From contig JAJYDJ010000004.1 of assembly GCA_021777565.1 (NCBI GenBank), forward strand, positions 34,077 to 98,076: DNA of 64,000 nt, in the 5' to 3' direction. Each line of letters opens with the position of its first letter. Position 1 is the stretch's first letter. Below the pieces are notes generated by a model, which saw nothing but the letters and a program-made list of their open reading frames with translations, had not been told where the DNA came from and did not search any database. Of the stretch, positions 9,210-46,051 are shown in pieces. Both the position numbers and the translations under genes were made by a program. This DNA is from a bacterium. Its GTDB lineage: Bacteria; Patescibacteriota; Microgenomatia; Levybacterales; UBA12049.

Positions 9210-10511
9210 ATGCATCACGAAGTACTCTCAAATGGCGTTCATGTTTTTCTCTATCCACTGCACGAGATAAAGTCAGTGCACATGCATGTATTTGCCAAGG
9301 GAGGCAGTCTCATGGAAAATCCAGAGAAAAATGGTCTGGCACACTTCATGGAACACATGCTTTTGCAGGGGACACCTCATTTTAAGAACGCTCATGAGAT
9401 TTCCCACTATATTGAGACGCTTGCAGGATCATTCAATGCCTATACCAATGATCGTGAGATCTCTTTTCACGTGAGTCTTCCCTATACCTACACAAAAGAA
9501 GCCATAGATCTGGCCTATGATATCTGGTTCTCCTCAACATTCCCAGAAGATGCTTTCGTGAAAGAAAAACGAGCGGTGTTATCTGAGGCAGCACAGAGGC
9601 TGGATGGGTTAGGCTATAAGCTTGGCAAATTTGGTAAAGATATGCGTTTTAAAGAAGGCACCAAACTCCGCCAGTTTACCATCGGTCTTCCAGAAGTGAT
9701 TCAAAAAATTCAACTGGAGGATACCGTAAATTACTGGAAACAGTTTTTCACCACAGATAATACCTATGTGTTGGTTATCGGCAATATGGATATAGAAGAG
9801 GTCAAAAAGCAAATTCAGGCTACCTTTGGGTCCGTTGAAAAAACAAGCGCGCCTACACTTTTCACAAGTATATCTGGTTCTGACTTTGCCCCAAGTGGCG
9901 TGTATATCAATCACGACGAGAAGTTACAAAGTAATTATGTAGACATCTCTATCCCATCCTTGCCTCTTGAGACAGAAAGAAGAAAATTAATGACTGCTGG
10001 CCTTGCGACGACTATCTTTGGAGGATTGACCTCAAGCAGACTCCAGAAAGTCCTGCGCTGGGAGAAAGGTTTGGTATACGGTGCATCAATAGACTCCTAT
10101 GCGATCCCACACCTGGGCGAGACGTCCTGCTCGACTGAAATGCGCAGTGAACAGTACTACGAAGCCATGGAGTTAATGACAGATCTTCTGGTCGAGTTCA
10201 TGCACAAAGGACCAACTGATGATGAGATGGCACATGCCAAACAATACATTCACGACAGGCGCCTGATGGTTTTTGATGAACCCTCCCGCATCGTCGGCTG
10301 GTTCAAACATGAATTCCTGTGGCGAGATAAGATCATGATGCCAGAGGAGACACTCGAGATTCTCAAAACCATTACCAAAGAAGAAGTAAATGCGGTTCTT
10401 TCAGAACTTAACGTGAGTGGTGCACAGATCATCCAACAAGGGCCACAGGCTGATGATGCCAAACTTCGTGGTTTTCTTGAGACACAGCTCACAAAAATTC
10501 AAGCAAAATAG
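9210..10511 (+). CDS. M16-family zinc peptidase (pitrilysin/insulinase-like)
   Basis: 433 aa. Inverted zinc motif HFMEH (HxxEH) near the N-terminus, followed by ...E. Two-domain M16 architecture. Confidence 0.8.
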   Translation: MHHEVLSNGVHVFLYPLHEIKSVHMHVFAKGGSLMENPEKNGLAHFMEHMLLQGTPHFKNAHEISHYIETLAGSFNAYTNDREISFHVSLPYTYTKEAIDLAYDIWFSSTFPEDAFVKEKRAVLSEAAQRLDGLGYKLGKFGKDMRFKEGTKLRQFTIGLPEVIQKIQLEDTVNYWKQFFTTDNTYVLVIGNMDIEEVKKQIQATFGSVEKTSAPTLFTSISGSDFAPSGVYINHDEKLQSNYVDISIPSLPLETERRKLMTAGLATTIFGGLTSSRLQKVLRWEKGLVYGASIDSYAIPHLGETSCSTEMRSEQYYEAMELMTDLLVEFMHKGPTDDEMAHAKQYIHDRRLMVFDEPSRIVGWFKHEFLWRDKIMMPEETLEILKTITKEEVNAVLSELNVSGAQIIQQGPQADDAKLRGFLETQLTKIQAK

Positions 10512-10855: not shown

Positions 10856-10926
10856 TGCCGGATCGTCTAATGGTAGGACAACGGACTCTGAATCCGTTTA
10901 TCTTGGTTCGAATCCAGGTCCGGCAG
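10856..10926 (+). tRNA. tRNA-Gln (anticodon CTG)
   Basis: Folded by hand. Acceptor TGCCGGA/TCCGGCA (7 bp), D-stem GTCT/GGAC with loop AATGGTA, anticodon stem ACGGA/TCCGT with loop CTCTGAA (U33, CTG, A37), variable TTAT, T-stem CTTGG/CCAGG with loop TTCGAAT, discriminator G. CCA is not encoded. Confidence 0.8.
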
Positions 10927-12642
10927 CAAGCTTGAAATAGCCTCATCAGAACCACACTTTTGGGTTACTAAATCAATGGAATCGCCAGGTTCGATTGTCT
11001 CCAGAACTTTAATATAGTTTTTCTTCATATTAGATAACACAATCCACGGTTCGTATTGATGTATCGATAAAATCTTATCAGTCAGTGTTAGGTTCGATCC
11101 GAGGGCGTGGAGTATAGCTCGCTTCTGTTCAGTTGTTCCTTTTTTAAACCAAATGTGCGCGTAGGTAGCAAAATTAAATGTCTGCTCACATAGTTCTAAC
11201 CACTCATCAGCGCGTTTATCTGTCTGAGCAACATTGGTGCGCACTTGCTTCTGCTCTTCTAGAAGGTTTGTCTTTTTATGCGTATATTCTTCATCAGTAA
11301 TGAAGCCTTTCAGTCGCATACTCAAGAGCTCATCAAGTTGCTTTTGTACGTCAGTATCTACAGATTGCAAGTTTTTCTTAATCGTAGTTCTTTCATGTAC
11401 TTCGTTCTTATGCAACTCCTGTAACCACTTAATTGCCCACTTACTAAATCCCTCAGGAATAGCAAACTGATCAATCAAGGCATTTACTTGTTCTTCAAAT
11501 TGAGTGACCACAAGGGAAGTTTGTTTGCATTTCTCTCCATCAGCTAACATTTTCTTTGTACAATGAAGCCACGTGTAGTGAAGAATGGTAGGATTTCTCA
11601 TTTCAGCAATCTTTTTTCCACACTGAATGCACTCATCTCTGTCCTGTGCTTTATGGAATTTCGTTTTACATATAGGGCAGATAATCTGCCATTTCTCTTC
11701 CATGGTAATATCACCACCACATTTGCCACACGTCATTTCTCCTGTGTATGCCCATTGTTTAGGTGTCAACCGTCTGTTTGCTTTCTTCCCAAGAAGGACC
11801 TGGATGGTGTCAAATTCTTCCTTTTTCATGAGAGGTTGGAAGTTGGCTGCAAACTCGCCTTCAGCTCGTACGATATGACCATAGTACTTTGGATCAGATA
11901 GTAACTTGTACCATGTACTCTTTGCCAGTGGGTTTCCACCCATTCTTTTTGTTTTTCTTGTGCGATATCCCCACTCATTGTTTAAAATATTTAGTGCTTC
12001 TATTGGTGTATGTGTCTTATTCAGAATAAGGGTAACTGCGTTATGTAGGAGTTGAAAACGATCCTTATCAACTCCCTGTATGTATTCATCGCGGTCATTC
12101 TTTATGTGGACATACCCTTGCGAGAGAGAACCACTCGGAATATACCCTGCTTTGAGTTTTGTTCTATTGCCACGCTTAACAACCTCACTTTTGTCATCAC
12201 TGTCTCTGGTTGCTCTAGTAAATTCATTCATCAAATATTCCTTATCTCGTGGAGAATTTTCAAAAACACCATGGGGAGTAACGACAATCTTTAGCTTTCC
12301 ATCAGACATGAGTTGCGTAAATCTGCCACCATCGGCGTAATTTCTCGCAATACGATTTGGGTGCCAAACCATAACGGCATCGACCTGTCCTTGTTCAATA
12401 AGGTCAATAAGTGCTTGAAATTGTGATCGTCCCATTTTGAAAGCTGATTGTTTTTCTTCAAAAACATGAATCATTGCAAGGGGAAGTTGAAATTTATTCA
12501 CAATATCACTTATTAAATCTTCTTTTTGTCCTTCAATGGAGCGAAGTTGTTTATCTTCATTGTCCTCGGTGGATTTACGAAGATACATACCAAATCTGTA
12601 TGTCTTTAGTTTTTGTTGGAGTGTGTAATCAAAAAATGCCAT
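10867..12642 (-). CDS. large serine recombinase (integrase) of the integrated element
   Basis: 591 aa. N-terminal resolvase-type catalytic domain with YLRKSTEDNE (catalytic Ser), a long recombinase domain and a Cys-rich zinc ribbon (CGKCGG...CPICK...CIQCGK). The last ~20 codons overlap the tRNA-Gln gene in antisense. Confidence 0.85.
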   Translation of the reverse strand: MAFFDYTLQQKLKTYRFGMYLRKSTEDNEDKQLRSIEGQKEDLISDIVNKFQLPLAMIHVFEEKQSAFKMGRSQFQALIDLIEQGQVDAVMVWHPNRIARNYADGGRFTQLMSDGKLKIVVTPHGVFENSPRDKEYLMNEFTRATRDSDDKSEVVKRGNRTKLKAGYIPSGSLSQGYVHIKNDRDEYIQGVDKDRFQLLHNAVTLILNKTHTPIEALNILNNEWGYRTRKTKRMGGNPLAKSTWYKLLSDPKYYGHIVRAEGEFAANFQPLMKKEEFDTIQVLLGKKANRRLTPKQWAYTGEMTCGKCGGDITMEEKWQIICPICKTKFHKAQDRDECIQCGKKIAEMRNPTILHYTWLHCTKKMLADGEKCKQTSLVVTQFEEQVNALIDQFAIPEGFSKWAIKWLQELHKNEVHERTTIKKNLQSVDTDVQKQLDELLSMRLKGFITDEEYTHKKTNLLEEQKQVRTNVAQTDKRADEWLELCEQTFNFATYAHIWFKKGTTEQKRAILHALGSNLTLTDKILSIHQYEPWIVLSNMKKNYIKVLETIEPGDSIDLVTQKCGSDEAISSLLPDLDSNQDKRIQSPLSYH

Positions 12643-21451: not shown

Positions 21452-22846
21452 ATGCTTGAGAGAGTATATATTAGTGATTTAAAGAATTATATTGGTCAAG
21501 ATGTTATTGTTGATGGTTGGGTTGATGTAAGGCGTGACCATGGTAAACTCATCTTCATAGATCTACGTGATAAATCAGAAAAAGTACAAATAGTATTTCT
21601 ACCTACTCACCAGGAAGCGCATGAAACTGCAAAGTCTATCCGTTCAGAATGGGTACTGAGAATAAAAGGAAAAGTGAATGCAAGATCGGAGAAACTTGTA
21701 AATAACAATGAATTTAATGGCACATTAGAAATTGAAGCATTGAGTGTTGAAGTATTGAATAAATCAGAAGCGCTTCCCATAGATATAAGCACAGATGGTC
21801 TTGAAATCAACGAAGAGAATCGACTTCGGTATAGATACCTTGACCTAAGAAGAAAACGTATGCAAAGAAATCTTCGCATACGCCATAAGATCATAAAGAA
21901 AATGAGAGATTATCTTGATGAACGTGATTTTATTGAAGTAGAGACTCCAATTTTGACAAAATCGACTCCCGAAGGTGCAAGGGACTATATTGTCCCTTCG
22001 AGACAATCTAAAGGAAAATTCTACGCACTACCACAATCACCACAACAATATAAACAACTATTGATGGTTGCTGGGATTGAAAAGTATTTTCAGATTGCGC
22101 GATGTTTTAGAGATGAAGATACCAGGTCAGATAGACAGCCAGAGTTCACACAAATGGATCTTGAAATGAGTTTCGTAACACAAGAAGAATTAATCAACTT
22201 GAATGAAGAGATGTTGATTCATATTGTGCAAACGCTTATACCAGAAAAAAAGATCCAACAAATTCCATTTCCTCGCATTACATATAAAGAGGCTATGGAG
22301 AAATATCATACGGATAGACCAGATATTAGAGAAAATAAAGATGATCCGAACCTTCTTGCGTTTTGCTGGGTTGTTGATTTTCCATTCTTCGAAAAAGCCG
22401 ATAATGGCAGTTGGACATTTACGCATAATCCTTTTTCTGCCCCTAAACCAGAATATATGAATGATTTGCTTATGAAAACAAATGTAGAGAATATTATAAC
22501 AACTCAGTATGATATTGTTTTGAATGGGTACGAAATCGGTGGTGGAAGTATTAGGAATCACAACCCAGAGGCATTAAAAGCTGTGTTTGAAATAATGGGA
22601 TACCCAGAAGATCAAATCTCAAAGAATTTTGGCCACATGTTGCAAGCGTTGTCATACGGTGCTCCACCACATGGAGGAATTGCTTGGGGATTAGATCGTT
22701 TCGTTACCCTCCTCTTAGGAGAAGACTCTATTAGAGAGGTTATTCCTTTTGCTAAAACAGGTGAAGGAAAAGATCTTATGATGAGTTCTCCCTCGGAAGT
22801 CTCTACTGCCCAGCTACAGGAGTTGAATATAAAAACTTTAAAATAA
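21452..22846 (+). CDS. aspS: aspartyl-tRNA synthetase, archaeal/eukaryal type (no GAD insertion), island copy
   Basis: 464 aa. N-terminal OB anticodon-binding domain (VIVDGWVDVRRDHGKLIFIDLRD), motif 1 FIEVETPILTKSTPEGARDYIVP, QSPQQYKQLLMVAG, motif 2 FRDEDTRSDRQPEFTQMD, motif 3 GAPPHGGIAWGLDRF. Confidence 0.85.
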   Translation: MLERVYISDLKNYIGQDVIVDGWVDVRRDHGKLIFIDLRDKSEKVQIVFLPTHQEAHETAKSIRSEWVLRIKGKVNARSEKLVNNNEFNGTLEIEALSVEVLNKSEALPIDISTDGLEINEENRLRYRYLDLRRKRMQRNLRIRHKIIKKMRDYLDERDFIEVETPILTKSTPEGARDYIVPSRQSKGKFYALPQSPQQYKQLLMVAGIEKYFQIARCFRDEDTRSDRQPEFTQMDLEMSFVTQEELINLNEEMLIHIVQTLIPEKKIQQIPFPRITYKEAMEKYHTDRPDIRENKDDPNLLAFCWVVDFPFFEKADNGSWTFTHNPFSAPKPEYMNDLLMKTNVENIITTQYDIVLNGYEIGGGSIRNHNPEALKAVFEIMGYPEDQISKNFGHMLQALSYGAPPHGGIAWGLDRFVTLLLGEDSIREVIPFAKTGEGKDLMMSSPSEVSTAQLQELNIKTLK

Positions 22847-28542: not shown

Positions 28543-29034
28543 TTAGCTTGCGAAAACGAAATTAGAAGGCATACAGTATGTAGGGACATGGAAATGTTTA
28601 TCGTTCGAGCCACAAAAAGTTCGAATACTGTCTATGTCCGGCAGCATTCGTGGACTTTGTTCGTACAAAGACTCCAATTGGACTGTCCTATCAATCCCAT
28701 CCACAGGTTCTAACTTATCGTTAATTGCATTTGCCTCTTGGGCAGCGTCTTTTAGTGCTAAAAGTACTTCATCAAGGCGAATTGTTAAAATTTTGTCTTT
28801 TAAAATGAGGTTCGAACCAAGTTTTGCCAGAATATATCGCTTGTCTTCTACCTCTCCCTCGTTAAATCTCTTTAGAGCATCTCTTGCAAAGTCAAATGTC
28901 TCATCGGCTTTAGCCAGCCATTTATTTACTCGTTCTCCTGTGTCATTAAGTAACTCCTCAAGTCTTTGCAAAGGTAAAGATTCCTGTTCCTTCTTTAGAG
29001 GAACAAGCAGAAATCGTAAAAGAAATTGATGCAA
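28543..29034 (-). pseudogene. C-terminal remnant of a second large serine recombinase gene
   Basis: The 163-aa ORF aligns with the C-terminus of the intact recombinase (10867..12642): RVNKWLAKADETFDFA...KRYILAKLGSNLILKDKILTI vs RADEWLELCEQTFNFA...KRAILHALGSNLTLTDKILSI. The catalytic and recombinase domains are absent. Confidence 0.6.
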
Positions 29035-29129
29035 GAATCAAAAAGGCAGAACAACTTCAAAAAGTGGCCATAGAGGGGATAGAGCAAGCAAACAGACAAG
29101 TCGAGTCTATACTCTTAGCTACTAACTGA
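28950..29129 (+). pseudogene. fragment resembling the conserved C-terminal region of a type I R-M specificity subunit (HsdS)
   Basis: 59-codon stop-to-stop ORF, KVKIPVPSLEEQAEIVKEIDARIKKAEQLQK..., which resembles the HsdS repeat motif (i)PlPpLeEQk.Iv..ld. No start codon and no target-recognition domain. Confidence 0.3.
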
Positions 29130-29233: not shown

Positions 29234-29647
29234 CTATTCCTGTTGTTGGGCTAGATACTGATCTATCAACTCAATATCTCTTTTATCTTTCTCTCTATTC
29301 AGTTTTTCTTTGTAGTAACGTACTTCCTCTATTCGCACAAATGGGATACCTTCTCTTATTTCTGCTTCTTTAATCATCGTTGGTATATCCTTTCTTGTTA
29401 CTGCAAACCACCAGTTAGATATTTTTACTCCACTAAATCGTATGAATCCTTCTTCATTTGGCGTATATTCCTGAATGAGCTTTCCCCAGAGTTTATTTGT
29501 AACGATAAGGTCGATATTAGGTACTTCACGCAGGCCATACAACCCAAGAAGAGCACTGCCAAACACAGCGTACTCGCTGATTGGGAAGCTTTGTTCTTTA
29601 ACAGAAGCAATCAGGGTTTGAATGGACATAAAACTGATTATAAGCAA
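29234..29647 (-). CDS. hypothetical protein (possible minimal nucleotidyltransferase-like)
   Basis: 137 aa. FGSALLGLYGLREVPNIDLIV partially fits a GS...D NTase motif. Weak. Confidence 0.3.
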   Translation of the reverse strand: MLIISFMSIQTLIASVKEQSFPISEYAVFGSALLGLYGLREVPNIDLIVTNKLWGKLIQEYTPNEEGFIRFSGVKISNWWFAVTRKDIPTMIKEAEIREGIPFVRIEEVRYYKEKLNREKDKRDIELIDQYLAQQQE

Positions 29648-29688
29648 CTCTCTCTAGAGTTTCTACTAAGAGTTGCTATAATACACTC

Positions 29689-30909
29689 GTGACGAGAGTA
29701 CAACTTACCAATAAGACATACATATCAACAGCGACAGATGACGTTAAATTATTCTACCCAAGATCTCAAATGCAATCAGGTGAGCTCATATCAGGTTTTC
29801 AAGTAAATCGAAAACTAATTGATGGTCTCACAAAAGCTGAAGTTGTGTTTTTTTCAATGTTTTGGAAGCCAATCGGCGATTCTTTTCTATTTTTGTCTGT
29901 CTTAACCGCTTGTCTGGAATATTTGCAACTTACTCGACTAAATAATATGCCCAAAATTATCATTGATGACACGTTTTCTAACCTCATAAGACATCTGAAC
30001 ATACTCACAGAATATGAATTTATTTCACATGCAGTTGATTGGTTTAAGCAAAGCGTGCGCGAGAATAAAAATGTTGTTTTAATAACTGACGATGATCCAT
30101 TTACAATGGGAGAAAGTCCTGCAGTATTTAACACAGAAGAATATGTTTATCCGAAGTTTCACGAGAAACTAGTTGATGGCGATATTATCGATTATCCCTC
30201 ACGGCCAGCGAGATATTTTCTAACCTTTGAGAGAGAGGTAGGTATTAGATTAAAATCTGATCCTAATCTATCGCTTCCTGACTTTATCATGAATGATGAT
30301 ATTACTCTCACACAAAAATGTATAAATGATTTTGGGATTGATCTTGATACTCCTGGCCTTACATTCCTGGGAGTTATTAACCAAACCAGCATGGTGGAAA
30401 AAAAATTTGGAGGTCTAAGGTATCTTGAGGTAATAGATAAGCTATATGAGCTTAATAAAAATATTGCTGTTCTTTTCCTAGCTAACACAAAAGAAGAGTC
30501 GCCAAGTGAATGGCTAGCAGTTCTTGAAAAGATTAAAAAAAGTCCATATAAGGTCTATTTGATCGACTCTCGGGATTTTGAATTGCTTGCCTACATGTTC
30601 GCTCGATGCAAGTTGGTGTTGGGGAATGATACAGGCTTTTCTCATTTAGCCGCAATGTGTAAAAGATCCTTGTTAGCACCAAATGTGCCTTGCGTGATCA
30701 CTTACTCCAGACATGATTATGGGAAATGGAGTACAGGAAAAGAAAATGTCTATCCTGTCGTCACAGAGTTAAGTCAATACCTCAAGGATAGTAACTCCTC
30801 AATTAGTCGAGACAAAATTGATGTTACCAACTGGGGTTTAAAAGAGTGGGCATATTCTATATCTGAAGACGCTGTTTTTAACAGAATCAAAAAAATATGG
30901 GAAAAGTAG
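29689..30909 (+). CDS. GT9-family glycosyltransferase (heptosyltransferase-like)
   Basis: 406 aa. C-terminal LVLGNDTGFSHLAAMC resembles the GNDSGPMHLAAA signature of ADP-heptose:LPS heptosyltransferases. Confidence 0.6.
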   Translation: MTRVQLTNKTYISTATDDVKLFYPRSQMQSGELISGFQVNRKLIDGLTKAEVVFFSMFWKPIGDSFLFLSVLTACLEYLQLTRLNNMPKIIIDDTFSNLIRHLNILTEYEFISHAVDWFKQSVRENKNVVLITDDDPFTMGESPAVFNTEEYVYPKFHEKLVDGDIIDYPSRPARYFLTFEREVGIRLKSDPNLSLPDFIMNDDITLTQKCINDFGIDLDTPGLTFLGVINQTSMVEKKFGGLRYLEVIDKLYELNKNIAVLFLANTKEESPSEWLAVLEKIKKSPYKVYLIDSRDFELLAYMFARCKLVLGNDTGFSHLAAMCKRSLLAPNVPCVITYSRHDYGKWSTGKENVYPVVTELSQYLKDSNSSISRDKIDVTNWGLKEWAYSISEDAVFNRIKKIWEK

Positions 30910-31841
30910 ATTTAACTATTCTTGTACCTGCTTGGAATGAAGAAAGAAATATAACAAGCTTTCTTAGTGATATTGCAGATCAATTAAATTATAGTTCATT
31001 TAAAACAGATGTCATCATCCTTGCTAATGGATGTGTCGACAATACTATCCCACTGGCAAAGTCTCATATACAAAAACAGTCCTTACCAAATGTTTCATGG
31101 CTAATACAAGTGTTTGATGATCCATTTAAGAATAAAGTTCTTAATGCAGGCATCGAGTTGGCAAAATCCGATATTATACTCAACCTTGATGCCGATTCTC
31201 GTTTAGAAAAAAATTGTATTTCTCGCCTTTATAGCTTTTTACTAGATAATCCAAAGGTTAATTTAGTTGGAGGGCTGGATATACCTATTTACGACAAGCT
31301 CAATAAGGAAACACTACTTTATCAATTTCAGAGAACTCAACAGATCTGGAGAGAAGAAAGAGGTCGTGTTATGGCAATCGGTGCTGTTATGATGTATCGT
31401 AAATCGTCATTTAACGGGTTCCCCTTGGATGCAATCTCTGAAGACACCTGGCTCTCTTTATACATTGCTTCTAAGTTTGGCTGGGAATCTGTAAAAGTAC
31501 TCATGGATGCCAATATTCACATCTTCGCTCCGACAAGTTGGAGTGATTACTTAAAACAACAAACTCGTTGGGACACAGGATATGTCCAACTTATGAAAAA
31601 CCACCCAGAGCTTCAATCAACGTATGATAATCGTAGAAGCTTGTTTAAAAGAAGAAGTAATGAAGAGATATTCGAGAGTGTATACAACAGGCTTGATGAA
31701 GAAAAGATAGCTCGATCGCGCTTAGTTGAGCTTCGTGATATAATCAATATCATTATTGAAGAAAATAGTGATATTGAGTACGACTCAATACTGAGAAATG
31801 TAGGGACATGGGACCCTATTATTTCCACAAAGGGAGCATAA
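30897..31841 (+). CDS. family 2 glycosyltransferase
   Basis: 314 aa. LTILVPAWNEERNI, ILANGCVDNT, DADSRL (DxD). Overlaps the upstream GT9 gene by 13 nt. Confidence 0.7.
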   Translation: MGKVDLTILVPAWNEERNITSFLSDIADQLNYSSFKTDVIILANGCVDNTIPLAKSHIQKQSLPNVSWLIQVFDDPFKNKVLNAGIELAKSDIILNLDADSRLEKNCISRLYSFLLDNPKVNLVGGLDIPIYDKLNKETLLYQFQRTQQIWREERGRVMAIGAVMMYRKSSFNGFPLDAISEDTWLSLYIASKFGWESVKVLMDANIHIFAPTSWSDYLKQQTRWDTGYVQLMKNHPELQSTYDNRRSLFKRRSNEEIFESVYNRLDEEKIARSRLVELRDIINIIIEENSDIEYDSILRNVGTWDPIISTKGA

Positions 31842-31842
31842 T

Positions 31843-32499
31843 ATGAAAACTTATACGAGAGATGAAATTTATGAGCTTCACAAAAAATATACTCAAGGCG
31901 CTCATCCTGAGCGTTTTCTAGATAGTGTCTGGACACATTCTCAAATTGTTGCTGAAATTGCAGATCGTATTTGTGACTTTCTCAAAAAGACGTATGAGGT
32001 CACTCCTAATCGCGAGTTAGTTCAGACTGGGGCACTTCTTCATGACATTGGAGTATATAAATGTCATGATGACGAGTTAAACCCCGTCCAGGAGCCTGGA
32101 TATATTTCCCATGGTATAGAAGGCTATAAAATACTCAAAAAAGAAAGTTATCCAGAGTACTTGGCTCGCTTCCCGTTGTCACATACAGGAACAGGTATTA
32201 CAACAGAAGATATTGAAAGAGAAAACTTCAACTTAGAACTTAAAAATTATATTCCTGTCACTCTTGAAGAAGAGATTGTTTGCTATGCTGACAAGTTTCA
32301 TACAAAGTATCCAGCTTTTGACACGTTTGATAAAGCAAAGTCTAGACTTGAGAAATTTGACCCAAGTAAAGGGATACTTATGAATCGATTTAAAAAGAAG
32401 TTTGGTATTCCTGATGTAAGCGATCTAGAGGCCAAATACAAAGATTGGCAAGAAGAGTTAGATCACTACCTCACCTCCCTGTCCGAAGCTAAAAAATGA
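31843..32499 (+). CDS. HD-domain metal-dependent phosphohydrolase
   Basis: 218 aa. H...GALLHDIGVYKCHDD (the HD motif) plus downstream His/Asp residues. Confidence 0.65.
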   Translation: MKTYTRDEIYELHKKYTQGAHPERFLDSVWTHSQIVAEIADRICDFLKKTYEVTPNRELVQTGALLHDIGVYKCHDDELNPVQEPGYISHGIEGYKILKKESYPEYLARFPLSHTGTGITTEDIERENFNLELKNYIPVTLEEEIVCYADKFHTKYPAFDTFDKAKSRLEKFDPSKGILMNRFKKKFGIPDVSDLEAKYKDWQEELDHYLTSLSEAKK

Positions 32500-33602
32500 T
32501 CTCTAAAGAATTAGTTGTCATAGAACGATATGTCCCTAGAAATCCTGTCCATGAACCAAATAGAGATGGTTTTCGTGCAGACAGTTTATTAGTAATCGAC
32601 AATGCCGATTTAGGTCCAATTGGTGTAGTAAGAAAAAAGACGCATTACGTTAACAGTCCAGCAGATGTGATGATAATGCCCTTAGAGGGAGCAATCTCAC
32701 AAATTACTGAACTATCCGAAGCAGAAGCAGCCTCATTCTTGTTAACTTGTGCGAGAGTAGTTGATGCAATGAGAGAAATTTCGCCTGATGGCTCTCCAGT
32801 TATTGCAATAAATCAGCAACCTGATTGTATAATGCTTCCTACTAAATTTGCTCCAGATGGCACTGAGCTTAAAGTACAGACAATAGATGCAATACATGCA
32901 CATGTATTTTTAGAAGATGGGCGAGGACTACCGCGTGGGACAATTTCTTCAATGGATAAAGTTGCATCAACTGACTTCTTTGATCCACTCGGACATGCAG
33001 TAAGTCAATTATTTATTAGTGAGGTTAATAGACAGTTGGATGAAGCTGGGCTTGCTACTCAATCAACATACAACACAGATCACTTCCCACTTGGTATCAA
33101 TGTACCTTTCGACGGAGATATTGTTGCAGTACTTACAGATCCTCGTATTGCACGATTTATACAAGCTACGCAGAGGAGTTACGTACAGACATATAGAATG
33201 ATTGAGCAGATTTGGCAAAATTACTCAGGTGAAGCAAGGCGAGATCAGATTACACAATTTTTCTCAGGGTTATCTGGAGAAAACATACAAGTAAGAGAAT
33301 TTGTAGAAAGAGTGATTCTTTCTCTTAGAGAAGATGTATCTGGTGTTGAAAGACACCATAGATTAGTACAAGGCCCTGCTCTGACCTGGGTTATTTATGA
33401 AAGAGATGGAAGGTGTTATATTCACTTAACTCCTCGCTTTTTTTCTCGCGGAAACGCAATGGAAGATTTAGGGGTTTGGGTAGAACCAGTAGAGGAAGTT
33501 ACACCAGATCTATCTGAAGCAAATGACTTCTATAGGTTACTTATGGTAAAATTGGGATCAACCCTTCTTGTTTCTGAAGGTGCATCCTTATATGAAAATT
33601 AA
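32496..33602 (+). CDS. hypothetical protein with HIT-superfamily-like N-terminal region
   Basis: 368 aa. LLVIDNADLGPIGVVRKKTHYVNSPADVMIMPLEG...IDAIHAHVF resembles the HIT fold, but the third His of the HxHxHxx nucleotide-binding motif is replaced by Phe. Tentative. Confidence 0.3.
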   Translation: MISKELVVIERYVPRNPVHEPNRDGFRADSLLVIDNADLGPIGVVRKKTHYVNSPADVMIMPLEGAISQITELSEAEAASFLLTCARVVDAMREISPDGSPVIAINQQPDCIMLPTKFAPDGTELKVQTIDAIHAHVFLEDGRGLPRGTISSMDKVASTDFFDPLGHAVSQLFISEVNRQLDEAGLATQSTYNTDHFPLGINVPFDGDIVAVLTDPRIARFIQATQRSYVQTYRMIEQIWQNYSGEARRDQITQFFSGLSGENIQVREFVERVILSLREDVSGVERHHRLVQGPALTWVIYERDGRCYIHLTPRFFSRGNAMEDLGVWVEPVEEVTPDLSEANDFYRLLMVKLGSTLLVSEGASLYEN

Positions 33603-35274
33603 AAAAGCAAATAAAGTGCCTTTCATAACCTCACTTGAGGACGATTTCCTATCAGGAAAGAATAAAAAACAGAAAAAGTTATTCAATGAGGTAATTGATG
33701 CTGGATTTGATTTTTATTCAGGCAAACAACGTGATCAAAAATTTCTTGTCTATAGAACTCCAGACGAGCTTAAAGAAGTCTTTGCAGAAGCAATGCCAGA
33801 AGATAGTACTGACCTACCGTCAATCATCAACTATCTCAGACTAATCGGACACTATTCAATTTCCCAATCAGATTTGAGCTACTTAGCGTTTCCTGACTCT
33901 GGGAACTCTATAGCTGCACTACTTGGAGACATCTATGGTAAATTTTTGAATCAAAACCTGATTGCATTTGATCGAAGTGCACCAGCAGCAACCATTATAG
34001 AAATTCAGCTTATTGAATGGTTACGAGCGTTAATCGGGTATGAAAGTAAAGAGTTAAAGCAAATTGAAAACCTAGCAGAAGTATCAGGTATGTGCACGAC
34101 AGGCGGGCATATGTCAAATCACGTAGCCACTCTCTCTGCACTTAATTGCAAATACCCTCAAATAAAAAAAGATGGGCTTTCAAGTCTAGATCATTCCCCG
34201 AAAATAGTTTTAGCTGGCAAGATAGGTCACTACTCATATGGAGCTGCTATGCACCATTTAGGACTTGGGAACGCAAATATTATTAACACTGATTCTAACG
34301 ATGACTTCACGACTAACATAGATGCACTTGAGAATGTGTTAGAACAGCACAAGGACAAAAATGATATTTTTATGGTTGTAGCAGTAGCGGGAAACTGTAG
34401 AACAACGGGAATAGATAACATTGCCTCAATTGCGAAAATATGCAAGAAATATGGAATATGGCTCCATGTTGATGCATGTCATGGAGGCAGTTTATTATTC
34501 TCTGATAAATTAAAAAAACGCTATCTCATGGGTATCGAAGAGGCAGATTCTGTCGCACTAGATCCCCATAAAGGGCTTTTTGTGGCATACCCTTGCAGCT
34601 TTGTTCTCTTTAAGAAGAGAGATACGCTTGTAACATTCACTCGATATGAAAAAGAGGCAAGAAATGGTGAATCATGGGATTTAGGTTACATAACACCTTT
34701 CTTAGGATCAAGAGGATTTGAGTCCCTCAAGCTTATGTTACTCATAAAGCACTTAGGCAAAAAAAGGCTGAGCGAGATAACTGAAAAAAGGCAGGGAGAT
34801 GCCTTATATGTAGAGTCACTCATAGCAAAGTCAGGATATTTTGTTTTGTTTAATGATATGACATTTTATCGAATGGCTTTTGTTTATTATCCAAACAAAA
34901 TTAGAAAGCAAGTCTCAAAGTTCACTCTCTCAGATGAGACTAATCAAAAAATTATCAATTGTATTGATCATTATACACATACAATCAACAGTGAGTTATA
35001 TAAGGAAGGTGATATTTGTCTTGATGAGTTTAAATTACATGACATAGGGAACCAGACAGCAACTAATGCTAAGGAGACACGATTTTATGTAATGAGTATT
35101 ACGACAGGTAACCCACTACTTACCAATGAGAACTTAAAGAGATCCTTAAGCTTTCTCTTTAAAAAGGCAAAGCGTTACGAGTCTGCTATGGGAAAAGACA
35201 TAGTATCTATAATAAAAAGTGACACATATGCCCCGAAGGTAACAAAAACATATGGACCAGCAGGATGGAATTAA
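33568..35274 (+). CDS. PLP-dependent group II amino-acid decarboxylase
   Basis: 568 aa. The Lys-containing S-x-H-K site is in DSVALDPHKGLFVAYPCSFV, with an upstream GGHMSNHVAT-type region. The start may be the Met at 33592. Confidence 0.7.
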   Translation: MFLKVHPYMKIKKANKVPFITSLEDDFLSGKNKKQKKLFNEVIDAGFDFYSGKQRDQKFLVYRTPDELKEVFAEAMPEDSTDLPSIINYLRLIGHYSISQSDLSYLAFPDSGNSIAALLGDIYGKFLNQNLIAFDRSAPAATIIEIQLIEWLRALIGYESKELKQIENLAEVSGMCTTGGHMSNHVATLSALNCKYPQIKKDGLSSLDHSPKIVLAGKIGHYSYGAAMHHLGLGNANIINTDSNDDFTTNIDALENVLEQHKDKNDIFMVVAVAGNCRTTGIDNIASIAKICKKYGIWLHVDACHGGSLLFSDKLKKRYLMGIEEADSVALDPHKGLFVAYPCSFVLFKKRDTLVTFTRYEKEARNGESWDLGYITPFLGSRGFESLKLMLLIKHLGKKRLSEITEKRQGDALYVESLIAKSGYFVLFNDMTFYRMAFVYYPNKIRKQVSKFTLSDETNQKIINCIDHYTHTINSELYKEGDICLDEFKLHDIGNQTATNAKETRFYVMSITTGNPLLTNENLKRSLSFLFKKAKRYESAMGKDIVSIIKSDTYAPKVTKTYGPAGWN

Positions 35275-36622
35275 AATAAGAACTATATTAGAGTCAAATA
35301 GATTCTTATCGCCAACATACTCAAAGTGGTATGCGAATATTTTTGTGGATTTGTTTCACAGTAGTAGTCTCAGCCCTAGTGACTGTTTAAACCAGCTCGA
35401 AGCTGGTTATCATCCTCATAGAGTTTTATATAAATTTTTAGGTGGAAGCACATTTACGCAAGATAAACTTAACTATCATCCGATTGATTACAGTAAACAT
35501 ATTTCATTCTGCACGAAAGATGAACAAATGCATTGTAATGACCATGATCTAATTGACTACCTTAATTCTCAATATATTGGTAATTTTTCTGGATTTATCG
35601 AAAGCCTTTCTCCAATAACTACGGGAAGAATGTACTTAGATACTGGCACTGCACCGAAGCTACTGTTTCTCCCAAATAACAGAACATTTGTAGTTATTTG
35701 TATAAAGTCACAAAAGGAATATCTTGCAAATTACTATGTACTGAGTAGGCTGTTTAATGAAAGTAACTGTTGTAATGATCTTACTATTAAGACTATTGAT
35801 TCAATTGGTGTAGTGCGCAGCAACGGATTACAGTACTTCGTATCAGAATTTAAAGGTTTAGATTATGAAGCACTGATACTTGAATATGATAAAACAGAGA
35901 AAAAAGATACCTTATTAAGGGTATCACGAGAGCTAGAAGAACTATTTCTGGAAAACAATCTTTTTATTAGAAATCTTGCTCCTAGAAATATTTTATTTAA
36001 TGGCAATCATACGAGCTATCTTATTGATTTTGACAATGTCTATAACATCGAGGACAAGCACGATGTAAAACTCGCATCTAAGGAATTAAACAGAGACATA
36101 TGGTATGGGGATGTACTCTCTCGAAGAGATATAAAAACAATATTCAAAAAAAGAATCTTTTCATTTCCAGATGAGGCACAATTAACAGACATCTTTGAAA
36201 CGACTTTCTTTGAACGAGACAAAGTTAGATCAAGGGACTTAAAATACCTTTACTCTTTAGTAAGAGCCTTCGAGCAGTATGATCATTATTTAGACATAGA
36301 TATCTATGGTCACCAATTGGGTAGGTATATCTCAGATTATTGGGATTTATCAAGTGAAGTTAAACTGTATAAGTTTATTGCCCAAAATAAAACAAAGATT
36401 AAATACCTTAGAGCAATTCTTTATTTATTGTCTAGGCTCGATCAGGAGTTACTTCTAAGAAAAAAATACCACTTAGATAAAGATCTGGAATTGTTATCTG
36501 AACTAGCATTTCATAAAATTGCAGAAAATAGAGCTAACCCAGGTGTGAAGGCTCTTAAAGTTACACTTGATCCAGATTTAAGTTTCACAGAAAGGTACTT
36601 GGCGGTAAGGAGTGCAATATGA
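35252..36622 (+). CDS. hypothetical protein with protein-kinase-like / APH-like catalytic loop
   Basis: 456 aa. IRNLAPRNILFNGNHTSYLIDFDNV resembles an H/xRDxxxxN catalytic loop plus a DFD (DFG-like) motif. Confidence 0.35.
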   Translation: MDQQDGIKIRTILESNRFLSPTYSKWYANIFVDLFHSSSLSPSDCLNQLEAGYHPHRVLYKFLGGSTFTQDKLNYHPIDYSKHISFCTKDEQMHCNDHDLIDYLNSQYIGNFSGFIESLSPITTGRMYLDTGTAPKLLFLPNNRTFVVICIKSQKEYLANYYVLSRLFNESNCCNDLTIKTIDSIGVVRSNGLQYFVSEFKGLDYEALILEYDKTEKKDTLLRVSRELEELFLENNLFIRNLAPRNILFNGNHTSYLIDFDNVYNIEDKHDVKLASKELNRDIWYGDVLSRRDIKTIFKKRIFSFPDEAQLTDIFETTFFERDKVRSRDLKYLYSLVRAFEQYDHYLDIDIYGHQLGRYISDYWDLSSEVKLYKFIAQNKTKIKYLRAILYLLSRLDQELLLRKKYHLDKDLELLSELAFHKIAENRANPGVKALKVTLDPDLSFTERYLAVRSAI

Positions 36623-37161
36623 AGAAAAAAATATCATGGAAAGAACTAACAACAAGAAATGGCTATCCAGCTGACGAAGTAATATCTGCACTCCAAAAAG
36701 AGATCCGTCGCAATAATCAGGATAAAGCAGTTTACTGGGCATATGAGTTATGCATCTCTGGGAAAGTATTTGAGACAAAGTTCTGGGAAAGAATAATAAC
36801 TATCTCAGTGGAAGACATTGGTTTCGGTAACCCTTTGGCCGTTGTAATAGTCAATTCTCTTAAGAACTCATATTACTCTGAATTTGAGCACCAAGACGAC
36901 TCGTTAATTCAGGCTCTATTTGCTGCAGCATATTTAGCCTCATGCACGAAAGACAGATACATTGATGAATATAAAAACTATCTAAAAGAGAGTAAAATCA
37001 AGTTAGAGGTTCCTGATTATGCACTAGATAAGCACACAAAGAGGGGAAAGACATTGGGGAGAGATGACAAACACTTCTGGACCGTCGCAGCTAAACTTTC
37101 TCCTGAGTTAGCAAAAAGGAACAAGAAGTATTTAAAACTTGTCTTAAAATCACTCAAATAA
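36619..37161 (+). CDS. hypothetical protein
   Basis: 180-aa ORF with a 4-bp overlap with the upstream gene. No motif recognised. Confidence 0.35.
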   Translation: MKKKISWKELTTRNGYPADEVISALQKEIRRNNQDKAVYWAYELCISGKVFETKFWERIITISVEDIGFGNPLAVVIVNSLKNSYYSEFEHQDDSLIQALFAAAYLASCTKDRYIDEYKNYLKESKIKLEVPDYALDKHTKRGKTLGRDDKHFWTVAAKLSPELAKRNKKYLKLVLKSLK

Positions 37162-37162
37162 A

Positions 37163-38350
37163 ATGGCAGAGGCAGAACCACTTCGAATTGGTATTGATGT
37201 CAGTAGAGCTAGTCGTGAAAATCATGGCATTCCCATTTATACACGTAGCGTCTTGGCTGAGCTTGGCAAGTTAGATACGACTGACCAGTTTGTCTTATTA
37301 AGTTATCCAGATAGTCCAGTTGCTCATGGATTTGGCCTTCAAGATCCTGAGTTAGCGGCAATTCCATATTCTGGGAGATATATCCCTTGGGTGAGAGTAT
37401 TTCAGGAACAAGTGCTTTATCCAGCAGCACAACAAAGGCTCAATTTAGATGTCATGTGGCACCCTCAAAATCATGGCCAGTTTTGGACTCCAGTTGGTTA
37501 CGTTTGTACCCTACATGATGTTTTGCCATACTCCAGACCAGATCTTGCGCAGGACTTAGACACAAGAAGAGAGCAAGCTCTTTACTGGAGTCGAGTACAA
37601 AGTGCTGCTCACGCAGACATGATAATCACAGTCTCAGAATTTAGTAGAAAAGAAATCATTAGGCTACTTGGCGTTGATCCATCGCGCGTTGTTGCAGTAC
37701 AGAATGGTATAGACCACACAACATTTAGAGTTCTACGGTCAGAGGTAGATAGAGCAAGACTACAAACACAATATGGTTTACCAGAAAGATATGTTCTTAC
37801 AGTTGGTAGTTATGGACCACATAAGGACCTAGCAACAATGATAAGGGCATTCAAAACCAGCGACCTCATGCGACTTGGATATAACCTCGTTATGGTAGGG
37901 CCTAAGGATGAAATTGTATACACGTCTGACCATGAAGGATTGGAAGAGATGGTGAGGGACGAAGGGCTAGAAGGAAGAGTCTTAATGCTTCCACCAGTGC
38001 CAGTTACAGATTTAGTAGGGATGTATAACGGTGCCAGTATGTTTTGCATTACATCTCAATTTGAGGGGTTTGGGCTTACGCCTCTCGAAGCAATGGCTTG
38101 CGGGGTACCTGTTATTTCATCTGACTCAAGCTCGTTGCCTGAAGTTTGTGGGAACGCGGCGCTATATGCTCATGTCGGAGACTATCTAGGGTTTGCCGAG
38201 CGGATGAACTTATTAGCAACGGATATTGAATTAGCTCGCAGAATGACTAGCTTAGGCCTTATGCAAGCTGCCAAATACGATTGGGCAACTACCGCTCAGA
38301 AAACACTTGATATATTACAACGGGTCGGAAGAACGAACAGAAGGTCTTAG
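37163..38350 (+). CDS. GT4 (group 1) glycosyltransferase
   Basis: 395 aa. C-terminal [28 protein letters not shown] is the classic GT4 motif. Noticeably higher GC than its neighbours. Confidence 0.8.
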
Positions 38351-38442
38351 CAATGGAGGAGAAATAATTGTAAGCTCTAGTGAATCGCATAATTTACACT
38401 TTGCGATATTAAGTAGGTTCTAATGTGATCCATTACCCGCAG

Positions 38443-38480
38443 CCCATAAAAGACCTGGCTTATGCCAGTTTTTTTATGGG
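38443..38480 (+). terminator. rho-independent terminator after the GT4 gene
   Basis: CCCATAAAAGACCTGGC-TTAT-GCCAGTTTTTTTATGGG. The inner stem is CTGGC/GCCAG with a TTAT loop, followed by a T7 run. Confidence 0.5.
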
Positions 38481-38505
38481 TTGGCGTGTGACATGAGTTC
38501 ATGCT

Positions 38506-38856
38506 TTAGCTAGAATCCGACACTTCGAAGAAGTTAGTGCCCTTGTGGTACACGTCCGGCAGCACGTTTGTACGCATGTCTGGCTTAAGAAGCACAACAT
38601 ATGGCTTTTTGAAGCTAAAAGTAAGCATTTTGTCTTTCAAAAATTTATAGCGCCATCCGTGCCAAAAGTCGCTGTCAACAAAAATAAGAAGCGAGCCGTT
38701 TACTATGCAGTCAGGCTTACCGTAGAGCTTGGGGTGCTTCTCATAGTTTATTTTATAGCTGTCTAATAAACCCAAAAACTTTTGCTCTAGCTGCGTATTA
38801 GTACTTCTAATACTAGACATGTTATATGTGCGTTGAGCTTTAGTGAGGTTGTCCAT
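38506..38856 (-). CDS. vsr: very-short-patch repair endonuclease (Vsr)
   Basis: 116 aa. TKAQRTYNMSSIRSTNTQLE...GKPDCIV...FVDSDFWHGW matches the Vsr N-terminal and catalytic motifs (RSxNMSxIRsKNT...PD...FxHGCFWH). Confidence 0.7.
   Translation of the reverse strand: MDNLTKAQRTYNMSSIRSTNTQLEQKFLGLLDSYKINYEKHPKLYGKPDCIVNGSLLIFVDSDFWHGWRYKFLKDKMLTFSFKKPYVVLLKPDMRTNVLPDVYHKGTNFFEVSDSS
38545..38564. repeat. att-core-like copy of the tRNA-Gln 3' end (GTCCGGCAGCA)
   Basis: GTGGTACACGTCCGGCAGCA. The 11-nt core is identical to tRNA-Gln 10918..10928 and 17/20 identical to the 41404..41423 copy. Lies inside the Vsr 3' coding end. Confidence 0.5.
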
Positions 38857-38881
38857 ACAGTTTTCTGCATAGCAAAATCTA

Positions 38882-39901: not shown

Positions 39902-39907
39902 ATTTAG

Positions 39908-41017: not shown

Positions 41018-41101
41018 ACTTTAATCAGTATACTTAATTTATTTTCAATGCGCCATATATCAATCTGTATCATTCACTACTAAAATTACCTACTGCCTTT
41101 A

Positions 41102-41403: not shown

Positions 41404-41423
41404 GTGTACAGGTCCGGCAGCAA
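41404..41423. repeat. second att-core-like copy of the tRNA-Gln 3' end
   Basis: CAGGTCCGGCAGCAA (41409..41423) is identical to tRNA-Gln 10915..10929 (15/15). The copy at 38545 shares a GTGTACA-GTCCGGCAGCA context. Confidence 0.5.
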
Positions 41424-41515: not shown

Positions 41516-42430
41516 TTGTTTTTAGGCTTAAGATACATGATGAAAAGATACCTATTCCAATTAAATAACACATATAATAACGAAAAACCTTTCTACGAGA
41601 TAGATTCACTACCTAACTCAGACGTAGTTAAAGTTTATATATTCGGAGGCAGAAGTGACTTTGCACCAAATGGAATGGGTAGTATCTATATCTATTTAGA
41701 ATTGCGTGATGAACTTACCCCAAGAAATGTCTTTTATAACCTTCAGAGAATACTTAACCTGATTTATTTAGAAACTGGAAGTTCAACGTACTACAGAGAA
41801 ATTCCATTAAATGGGTTAAGTAATTTTGATGAAATTTATACTACTTTTGGTGCTTCTAAATATTTTGACGGCGCTACAAGTTACCATGGGATTACTCCAG
41901 AACCGAATCATATTTTAAGAGTTCAGCAACTAATAACACTGATTAACAAGGTAAATGAAAATGAGTTTATGAAATTTGATAATTCTTTAAATACATACGT
42001 GTGGGCTTTAGAATTAAGAGAGCTTCCTAATCCTCATCTGAAATTTACTTTATATATGACTCTTCTTCTTTCGTCTATTGAGCAACTGTCTAGTAGTCCT
42101 AGCAACTGTGACTTTCATGATCCTTGTCCTAAATGCCAAAGAGAGCTTTCCCATCATGTAAAAGGGCAGGGACAAAGGCAAGCTTTAGAAAACCTGATTA
42201 GGCACTTATTGACAGGAGCTGGTGTGGAAGATGGGGTTAAGCGAGTGAGTCTATTATATGGAAAGCTTCGGTCATCCTTTCTACATTCAGGGAATTTATA
42301 TGGAGGAGAAAAAGATGGAGGATTTTTAGAGGGGGTAGAGAACGACACTGAATTGTTAGAAGATGAGCTAAATATAATACTTCTTGTTAGAAAGTTATTA
42401 GAGCAGTTCCTAGTTAAAGGCTCTCAATAG
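41516..42430 (+). CDS. hypothetical protein
   Basis: 304-aa ORF in a low-GC stretch. No motif recognised. Confidence 0.35.
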   Translation: MFLGLRYMMKRYLFQLNNTYNNEKPFYEIDSLPNSDVVKVYIFGGRSDFAPNGMGSIYIYLELRDELTPRNVFYNLQRILNLIYLETGSSTYYREIPLNGLSNFDEIYTTFGASKYFDGATSYHGITPEPNHILRVQQLITLINKVNENEFMKFDNSLNTYVWALELRELPNPHLKFTLYMTLLLSSIEQLSSSPSNCDFHDPCPKCQRELSHHVKGQGQRQALENLIRHLLTGAGVEDGVKRVSLLYGKLRSSFLHSGNLYGGEKDGGFLEGVENDTELLEDELNIILLVRKLLEQFLVKGSQ

Positions 42431-45003: not shown

Positions 45004-45534
45004 ATGAATAAAACTGCTGTCGTGTACTTTCCACCATGTGAAGAGACGCAGATTCAGGAATTTCGGACACGCTACGATACAAGTTGGCAGGTCATCCCGC
45101 CACATATTACTATTGTGTCGCCATTGTCAGAGATCAGTGATGATCAGCTTATTTCACTCGTTGAAGAAGTAGCTCTCAAAACGCAGGTATTTCCGATCCG
45201 AATAAATAAACTTATCAAGAGTTTTGATGATTATCTGCTTTTACGAGTAACCGATGGCGAAGAAAAGATTAATGCACTGCATGACACGATGTATGCAGAT
45301 GCGCTCGCACCATATCTCCCTACAGAATATCCGTTTGAGCCACACATTACGCTTGGGTATTTTAGAGATGAACAAGACGTCTTTGATCAAGAGAAATTTG
45401 ACAGTGCGTTTGCAGAAGCTGAGGCTATGCAGTTCGATCTACAGTGCATGTTTGATGCGCTCACCGTTATCAAAGGGGATGGCATAAGCCCGAGTAAAAT
45501 GCTCAAAACTATTCCGCTCTTACGTCCTTCATAA
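45004..45534 (+). CDS. 2H phosphoesterase superfamily protein (LigT / 2'-5' RNA ligase-like)
   Basis: 176 aa. Two H-x-T-x motifs (PPHITIVSP and EPHITLGYF) at the expected spacing. Confidence 0.65.
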   Translation: MNKTAVVYFPPCEETQIQEFRTRYDTSWQVIPPHITIVSPLSEISDDQLISLVEEVALKTQVFPIRINKLIKSFDDYLLLRVTDGEEKINALHDTMYADALAPYLPTEYPFEPHITLGYFRDEQDVFDQEKFDSAFAEAEAMQFDLQCMFDALTVIKGDGISPSKMLKTIPLLRPS

Positions 45535-46051
45535 GTTCCAGAAGTTTTTCACAAGTTGCTAGATTTCGTATCGTGATCTCCTGATACCATTTTGTGCCAG
45601 AACCTTTACTAAAGCCACTGTCAGTCAGGCCATCTGCACGTGTCGCCATATACAAGACCCCTTTGCCCTCAGTCAGGGTATCGGTAGCAGTGAGTTTCAT
45701 CTCTTTTGCTATCTCTTCAGGAAGTGATGGGGGACGTACGAATGAAATGTAGCACCTTAGGTCCTCTGAGTGCCAAAGGGATGGCATGTCACTGATGACC
45801 TGTTCTAGCTCATCTCTGCTCACGAGTACGATCTTGCCATGATAGGAAAATGCACTGGCAAGCATCTGTTCGATCTTCTCAGTGAGTTGTGCCTGATCGG
45901 TCTCGGGTGAAGTAAAGATCACATTGCCACTTTGGATATAGGTCTGAACATGCTGATAGCCCTCCTCTTCAAAAAGCTTTTTCAGATCAGCCATCTTGAT
46001 GACATTTTTACCCCCAACATTGATCCCGCGAAGAAGCGCCAGATACGTCAT
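45509..46051 (-). CDS. DUF1697-family protein
   Basis: 180 aa. N-terminal MTYLALLRGINVGGKNVIKMADLKKLFEEEGY is typical of DUF1697. Confidence 0.5.
   Translation of the reverse strand: MTYLALLRGINVGGKNVIKMADLKKLFEEEGYQHVQTYIQSGNVIFTSPETDQAQLTEKIEQMLASAFSYHGKIVLVSRDELEQVISDMPSLWHSEDLRCYISFVRPPSLPEEIAKEMKLTATDTLTEGKGVLYMATRADGLTDSGFSKGSGTKWYQEITIRNLATCEKLLELMKDVRAE

Follow-up and report, generated by a model that had tools for sequence, protein, structure and literature searches.

A truncated serine recombinase gene at the junction of a probable tandem array of tRNA-targeting integrative elements in a Patescibacteriota contig

We analyzed a stretch of 64,000 nucleotides (hereafter, the window) from a bacterium of the Patescibacteriota (Microgenomatia; Levybacterales; UBA12049), corresponding to positions 34,077 to 98,076 of the forward strand of contig JAJYDJ010000004.1 (GenBank assembly GCA_021777565.1). 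The analysis centered on a minus-strand open reading frame (ORF), 28543..29034, which resembles the end of a large serine recombinase and abuts, on the opposite strand, what looks like a fragment of hsdS, the specificity gene of type I restriction systems. This scar lies inside an island that is very probably a tandem array of integrative elements whose large serine recombinases target tRNA genes; the array would comprise an intact element 1 and a decayed element 2, with the remnant of the second recombinase gene (int2) marking their junction. The island extends from ~10.9 to ~45 kb and has a GC content of 30-43% (mostly 34-40%), versus 42-46% in the backbone. It begins at the sole tRNA gene of the window, a tRNA-Gln(CTG) detected with ARAGORN (10856..10927, plus strand), which is the integration target and provides the B arm of attL. 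The closest relatives of the intact recombinase, int1, and of some backbone genes were found in metagenome-assembled genomes of Patescibacteria (Candidate Phyla Radiation).

The int1 gene (10867..12642, minus strand) encodes the 591-amino-acid (aa) recombinase of element 1, for which 212 homologues were found at E<1e-10. Pfam searches returned the Resolvase domain (E=5.6e-14) and, below the cutoff, the Recombinase domain (E=0.0021). The AlphaFold2 (AF2) model, with a mean predicted local distance difference test (pLDDT) score of 79, contained a catalytic domain, a recombinase domain, a zinc ribbon (aa ~303-378) and a coiled coil (397-501, formed by helices 397-444 and 450-501), in the order expected of a large serine recombinase, followed by a small subdomain with a helix/hairpin/helix fold (504-550) and by a disordered end. 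The invariant cysteine pairs were C305/C308, C322/C325, and C338/C341. The int1 ORF spans the attachment-site core and stops within the tRNA gene: its last ~20 codons are antisense to tRNA-Gln, and its end reads ...SSLLPD LDSNQDKRIQSPLSYH*.

The ORF 28543..29034 (163 aa with a TTG start), referred to here as the stub, aligned to the C-terminal part of int1 without gaps (BLASTP, stub aa 32-136 against int1 aa 474-578; 41 identities out of 105, 39%; E=7e-19). An earlier reading of the window, made from the letters alone (the sequence-only reading), had described it as a paralog of the recombinase C-terminus without a catalytic domain, and had expected the similarity to be significant. Both parts of this description held. 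The blocks it had quoted, KR.IL..LGSNL.L.DKIL.I and WL...TF.FA, fall within the alignment, which is significant at the protein level; at the DNA level, only short motifs were alike. No Pfam domain was found in the stub, and tblastn with N-terminal 400-aa queries from ~100 family members detected no N-terminal recombinase part beside it. The recombinase and zinc-ribbon domains are also missing, as the stub aligns only to int1 aa ~464-578, downstream of the zinc ribbon in the AF2 mapping. The stub is thus a fragment and not a recombinase. Its recombinase-derived part, the int2 remnant (28647..~28965, minus strand), corresponds to int1 aa ~464-576 and thus to the C-terminal half of the coiled coil, together with the small subdomain that follows it and the disordered end. 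Its nearest relative, the protein P0002, is 66% identical to the stub, which is probably non-functional.

The remainder of the stub was accounted for by a short repeat. The 11-mer GTCCGGCAGCA, which is made up of the tRNA 3' acceptor strand and 3 further nt, was present in four copies in the window, all on the plus strand (at 10918, 28636, 38554, and 41412), versus an expectation of 0.32 even with one mismatch allowed; four copies were reached in none of 100 shuffles. Read on the minus strand, the 11-mer encodes xLLPD, and all four copies are in that frame within a minus-strand ORF. The copy at site 1 (10918..10928) reads xLLPD in int1, while the exact copy at site 2 (28636..28646) lies inside the stub ORF, 31 codons ahead of its stop. 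Since the core recurs at this point, the ORF is a chimera made of the C-terminal remnant of int2, the 11-bp crossover core, and a tail-coding P arm that belongs to element 1; site 2 is the junction of the two elements. The sequence-only reading had suggested looking for a degraded copy of the tRNA-Gln 3' end just below 28543, and this was not borne out, as we found instead an exact 11-nt tRNA 3' end inside the ORF (28636-28646). Its broader suggestion that recombination sites may persist nearby was confirmed by the core copies.

The geometry of the arms was in agreement with this partition. At site 1, the motif TTCGAAC is 11 nt from GCTG (B-type spacing). The distance is 16 nt (P-type spacing) in the P arm of element 1 (28543..28635, minus strand), which encodes the 31-codon tail IDSIRTFCGSNDKHFHVPTYCMPSNFVFAS*. 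It is also 16 nt at site 2b, the P arm of element 2 (38380..38443, minus strand), which encodes ..GLRVMDHIRTYLISQ.. and carries the variant TTAGAAC, with CAGC at 38440-38443. Elements at tRNA-Gln, Asn, Ser, and Met genes (at least 10 loci) behaved likewise: a shared anchor, which is GCTG in those targeting Gln, was separated from TTCGAAC, the T-loop antisense, by 11-12 nt on the tRNA side and by 16-17 nt in the distal arm. In serine integrases, the motif of the zinc-ribbon domain is located 5 bp further outward in attP than in attB (Rutherford et al. 2013, PMC3783163). The difference between 11 nt at the tRNA and 16 nt in the arms reproduces this published shift, in the window as in the related loci; we therefore assign positions 28543-28635 to element 1, as its P arm, and no more than 28647-~28965 to the second recombinase. 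Moreover, the attP of element 1, reconstructed from the int1 side of site 1 and the left side of site 2, forms a ~54-bp dyad centered on the G|C of CAGCAA, whose two arms both carry AT[CT][AC]GAAC, at positions 19-26 in the outward direction. The tRNA-like stretch near site 2 is an attP half-site with a T-loop-like motif rather than a degraded tRNA. A candidate alignment of the stub tail with the tRNA (SNDKHFHVPTY versus SNQDKRIQSPLSY), in which the tail was a degraded tRNA-Gln copy with an 18-nt insertion, was ruled out by the C-termini and distal arms of the family.

The outer motif of the attB half-site was found to coincide with the universal tRNA T-loop (GTTCGAA), the attP arm carrying TT[CA]GAAC 5 bp further out (window positions 10895-10928, 28613-28645, and 38417-38443; loci L019, L020, L021, L035, and L049, among others). 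This could explain how the family switches among tRNA targets. We also observed that LGSNL, which is nearly invariant in the C-terminal subdomain of the recombinases, is encoded by GGTTCGAAC (window positions 28802-28825 and 11086-11100). This sequence, a palindrome in the stub, is the same as the T-loop-type attachment motif and lies ~170 nt from the core, which may be a coincidence.

Within the recombinase family, C-terminal tails were classified in 120 members, and 61 genome loci were fetched. Three classes were distinguished: tails antisense to a tRNA (..DSNQDKRIQSPLSYH, ..RDSNPDK..); ORFs truncated precisely at the core, in all likelihood by the end of a contig; and a conserved non-tRNA tail, D.[IV]RT[YFW]......F[YH][IV]P, to which the stub tail IDSIRTFCGSNDKHFHVPTY belongs. 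In most of the fetched loci that have a tRNA gene close to the end of the recombinase match (Gln, Ser, Asn, Met, or Glu), this gene was antisense across that end. The conserved tail of the third class was coded on the recombinase strand, several kb upstream, and thus at the far end of the element, as is clear in loci L009 and L011. A hidden Markov model of this tail identified ~20 loci, nearly all with the tail on the expected strand and side; in the window, it matched the P arm of element 1 and, with E=5.6e-4, that of element 2. Over 34 nt, the DNA of the element 1 P arm was 94% identical to that of the L009 distal P arm. Beyond this stretch the DNA diverges by synonymous changes that preserve the peptide F-x-[VI]-P-x-Y, so that the tail appears to be translated; it lies in a region with a pLDDT below 50.

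These features suggest a mechanism in which attP would lie within the 3' end of the recombinase gene and the free circle would encode the recombinase, the core, and the conserved tail. Upon integration, the arm that codes for the tail would come to lie at the opposite end of the element, and the recombinase gene would be fused to the antisense strand of the tRNA. In the excised circle, int1 would terminate in the tail coded by the element 1 P arm. Because the int1 frame crosses the crossover site, its 16-30 C-terminal residues are not the same in the integrated state as in the excised one. It is conceivable, although less likely than not, that the exchange of the P-arm peptide (D.IRT[FYW]...F.[VI]P) for the tRNA-antisense ..DSNQDKRIQSPLSYH might act as a sensor of the integration state, setting directionality or stability without a separate directionality factor. 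In that case, the stub would keep the sole copy of the excised-form tail of int1 and would mark element 1 as excision-competent.

Arrays with decayed members recur in the recombinase family, as indicated by two further loci. L008, an unrelated contig, carries an intact 516-aa recombinase that ends in tRNA-Gln(TTG) and, ~5 kb away in the same orientation, a remnant lacking the N-terminal part (P0004). This remnant is 54% identical to the stub, is followed by a decayed tail, and has its N-terminus fused to a different decayed gene. In L009, an element with a single integrase has two P-type arms at its distal end (992-1090 and 1893-1973), separated by 900 bp. Overall, remnants lacking the N-terminus were found in 2 of ~64 loci, and elements of the family are found singly in other species (for example, L009 and L011). 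The L009 arm pair amounts to a minimal integrase-less module, analogous to the decayed units of the window. In L008 (9590-10110), the N-terminus of P0004 is joined to a gene with a frameshift. We take the product of that gene, which has ..YADESG.. at the start and ..LIRLADAAAGF.. at the end, to resemble DUF3800.

Within the window, element 1 would extend from ~10.93 to 28.64 kb (17.7 kb) and appears intact, with int1 proximal to the tRNA and an attP-type arm at the distal end. Element 2, older or decayed, shows the same arrangement, with the int2 remnant in the proximal position; the class-three tail and P-type spacing at 38380-38443, after its last glycosyltransferase gene (ending at 38350), delimit it to ~28.65-38.44 kb (9.8 kb). 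The core is repeated in direct orientation at the junctions, as four exact 11-mers and the diverged core of the element 2 P arm (CAGC, 38440-38443). The sequence-only reading had proposed that the island is composite, that the scar is an old junction separating a block of aminoacyl-tRNA synthetase (aaRS)-like genes from a glycosylation block at 29-38 kb, and that the latter may have come with an earlier element. The composite structure is supported by the attP-type arm with which element 2 ends, and the junction does divide the aaRS-like block (element 1) from the glycosylation block (element 2). As for the origin of the glycosylation block, this arm argues for a separate element, while the order in which the elements arrived, like the mobility of the array, is something we only infer. 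The outer end of the array is either site 2b (38443) or site 4 (41412). Directly after the element 2 P arm, a terminator-like hairpin was observed at 38452-38478 (CTGGC TTAT GCCAG, then a run of T). This hairpin could be the terminator that originally lay downstream of tRNA-Gln, in which case 38443 would be the true end of the serine-recombinase array.

The other half of the scar is the 3' fragment of hsdS (28950..29129, plus strand; 59 aa), whose frame is bounded upstream by a stop at 28947-28949 and which covers the C-terminal conserved region only. Homology to the recombinase stops at 28965-28942 (RLEELLND); the start of the HsdS frame is at 28950, and that of its motif IPVPSLEEQ at 28980. 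As the two readings overlap on opposite strands, the breakpoint lies between ~28942 and 28980, a zone (28942..28980) in which a 5'-truncated int2 meets a 5'-truncated hsdS head to head. A single deletion would be the simplest origin of the scar; it would have eliminated three quarters of int2, from the 5' side, and all sequence as far as the last ~50 codons of the opposed hsdS.

The resemblance to HsdS had been put forward in the sequence-only reading as the weaker of its claims. That it is coincidental, i.e., that 28950-29129 is non-coding or antisense sequence and the scar a simple 5' truncation of int2 with no restriction gene involved, seems unlikely to us. The frame is only 59 aa long, its score for Pfam Methylase_S (PF01420; positions 127-164 of 168; E=2.1e-4, 22.0 bits) is exactly at the curated cutoff of 22, and a tblastn search of the fragment against plasmids gave no match. 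Two independent libraries nevertheless agree: in the phmmer search of the PDB, the top four matches were all type I S subunits aligned at the C-terminal conserved region (1yf2_A, residues 368-417 of 425; E=2.5e-4). Moreover, the frame carries the motif IP.P.LEEQ followed by ~40 helical residues and then the stop, as in real HsdS, and HsdS-like C-termini were detected, with weak scores, in loci L036, L038, and L050, on the strand opposite the recombinase and at most 10 kb upstream of it. The proximity of recombinase-derived sequence, lying just upstream of the hsdS fragment, might also recall a phase-variable locus in which a recombinase shuffles hsdS genes. This explanation is effectively refuted because its defining parts are absent: the stub has no catalytic domain, there is neither a second hsdS copy nor hsdS inverted repeats, hsdM and hsdR were not found, and the recombinase family is of the integrase type that acts on tRNA genes.

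Two other explanations concern the stub itself. It might be a free-standing small protein, expressed and kept by selection, such as a regulator or a dominant-negative partner of int1. Its frame is open for 163 codons, and a gene caller predicted a 142-aa product (P0001) from a TTG start at 28971, with AGGA ~8 nt upstream. The L008 remnant is also open and starts within ~12 residues of the same point, in the second helix of the coiled coil. We consider this improbable, however, as scans for promoters, terminators, and repeats around the scar gave no signal above background, so that no promoter-like site precedes the stub, and there is no conserved start: the N-terminus is antisense to HsdS in the stub and derives from another decayed gene in the L008 remnant. 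In addition, such remnants are as rare as noted above, the remaining short matches are contig-end fragments that stop at the core, and identity between the stub and int1 is only 39%. The protein P0001 represents the 90% cluster of the stub; in it, the LPD codons from the 28636 core read Thr for Pro (RMLTDIDS versus RMLPDIDS). An internal partial duplication of the int1 3' end within one island, with no second element, would explain why the stub shares its strand, its orientation, and the 11-bp core with int1. This is even less probable, given the low protein identity and the restriction of DNA similarity to short motifs, the existence of metagenomic proteins far closer to the stub (up to 66%; the identities suggest that it groups with P0002-P0006), and the P-type end arm that the glycosylation block behind the stub has of its own.

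Several results weigh against the tandem-array reading or limit it. Neither an empty attB nor a variant array was found among same-species contigs looked up with the flanking proteins 9210..10511 and 45509..46051; these contigs carried the identical array or were broken near the tRNA, and all those on record share one array. A third flanking protein, 41516..42430, returned no record. A metagenome scan with the 43-mer of the tRNA 3' end gave four contigs, which belonged to other organisms, had unrelated downstream flanks, and provided no informative junction for the species. In L009, the closest genome locus, the neighbors of tRNA-Gln match the window at 57.5-63.9 kb and not its tRNA neighborhood, so that no array boundary could be deduced from it. 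The mirror motif was not recognizable in the P' arm of the remnant, and at sites 3 and 4, the core copies at 38554 and 41412, the anchor and a TTCGAA-like motif are separated by 30 nt, a distance that fits neither the B nor the P type. The hsdS assignment is based on a frame of 59 aa with a borderline score, and neither hsdM, hsdR, nor a target-recognition domain was found near it using Pfam, nor any methylase or helicase domain in the ORFs flanking the fragment. Finally, recombination of attP with attL or attR is not carried out by canonical serine integrases (PMC3783163); relaxed site choice (as in Ccr/SCC systems), cointegrates, or homologous recombination are possible routes by which the array was assembled.

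Tandem arrays of integrative elements are well documented (PMC7192596). As in the arrays at tRNA genes described by Islander/TIGER-type studies (PMC7192596), the elements of the window lie side by side at one tRNA gene with direct core repeats at the junctions, and the older member has a lost or truncated integrase. Those arrays mostly involve tyrosine integrases that regenerate the tRNA 3' end, whereas a large serine recombinase is involved here, the repeat has a length of just 11 bp, and a P-O-P' hybrid forms the internal junction. The composite islands of the staphylococcal cassette chromosome (SCCmec/SCC), formed by Ccr recombinases at rlmH (PMC9430635, PMC5964201), share the stacking of serine-recombinase elements at one site, the short direct repeats as limits, and the presence of recombinase-less "pseudo" elements. 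They differ in recombinase clade, in having a protein-coding target, in host phylum, and in that the ccr genes are not crossed by the attachment site. A decayed integrase at an internal array junction is therefore a known kind of structure (PMC7192596; SCC islands), and the scar itself is ordinary.

What is less ordinary is the family of tRNA-targeting serine integrases, with its T-loop outer attB motif and a reading frame that crosses the attachment site. The canonical large serine integrases of phages (A118/LI, Bxb1, and phiC31; PMC3783163) have the same domain order, a zinc ribbon with an inserted coiled coil, and an attP outer motif 5 bp further from the center than that of attB. Unlike these, int1 has an extra conserved C-terminal subdomain, and its attB outer motif is the tRNA T-loop. 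In SSV-type archaeal integrases (PMC7253208), the attachment site also lies inside the integrase gene, the target is a tRNA gene, and integration alters the gene; these are tyrosine recombinases, however, and their gene is split into two inactive parts. In int1, a serine recombinase, just a short, predicted-disordered tail (~16 last residues) is exchanged, the tRNA-encoded tail replacing the P-arm-encoded one on integration, and a single ORF continues to encode both the catalytic and the DNA-binding domains. As for the hsdS fragment, it aligns to the C-terminal conserved helix region of HsdS (PF01420; PDB 1yf2, 2y7c), including IP.P.LEEQ, and unlike a full HsdS, it has no target-recognition domains, central conserved region, or partner hsdM and hsdR genes.

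The integrase family is large and Patescibacteria-wide, was seen almost only in metagenome assemblies, and targets many tRNA genes. No published description of such a serine integrase family, with a tRNA T-loop attB and an ORF crossing the attachment site, was found in full-text literature searches, an absence that is not proof of novelty. The island was resolved into the 17.7-kb element with three aaRS-like genes, the 9.8-kb glycosylation element, and a restriction-modification module. Because the junctions are known to the base pair, these cargo blocks can be treated as independently acquired. If correct, this picture of the family would help to map mobile elements in Patescibacteria genomes and would offer natural integrases with predictable tRNA-based target sites.

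Among the genes of element 1, we found, besides int1, ORFs of unknown function, a DUF5659 protein, three class II aaRS-like proteins, a family 2 glycosyltransferase (GT2), a short-chain dehydrogenase/reductase, an amidohydrolase, and a NUDIX protein; a PHROGs search with the stub and the element 1 genes gave no informative matches. The three aaRS-like (tRNA-synt_2) genes, located at 18123-19097, 21452-22846, and 23597-25597, are paralogous to the chromosomal gene 61823-63187. One of them has no anticodon-binding domain and another is fused to GlutR_N and shikimate-dehydrogenase-like domains. The cargo of element 2 (29234..38350) starts with a phage-type ORF on the minus strand, 29234..29647, which matched phrog_12854, a family of unknown function. 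This is followed, on the plus strand, by GT9-like, GT2, HD, pyridoxal phosphate-dependent decarboxylase, MgsA_C-like, and GT4 genes. The two 1-kb windows at 37001-39000, which contain the GT4 gene (37163-38350) and the junction after it, had a GC content of 42-43%, versus 34-39% in the rest of element 2; this hints at a different origin for the GT4 gene.

The restriction-modification module (38565-41411) contains vsr, NgoFVII-type restriction endonuclease, and Dcm genes. It is bordered on its left by site 3 (38554..38564, plus strand) and on its right by site 4 (41412..41422, plus strand), the latter with 15 nt identical to the tRNA end. With no integrase and no canonical arms, the module was not counted as a unit of the array. 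The Vsr ORF is short (116 aa), and its C-terminus crosses the 38554 core. The left arms of sites 3 and 4 are ~69% identical to each other over ~52 nt. No relatives of these arms were found in blastn-short searches against all loci. The tail of P0123, considered as a possible relative, proved to be an ordinary P arm. In viral contigs, a scan with the 17-mers of sites 3 and 4 gave 19 chance matches, with ~25-35% identity past the seed, and the P-arm pattern had no match.

Finally, a further arrangement was observed in loci L010 (11700-11800) and L012 (3240-3330), in which the recombinase genes end in '..LLYLTV*' and TTGCTG is followed by a shared sequence, TACCTCACGGTCTAGACCC.., that is neither tRNA nor P arm. 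This sequence may correspond to another kind of junction or to an inserted element.

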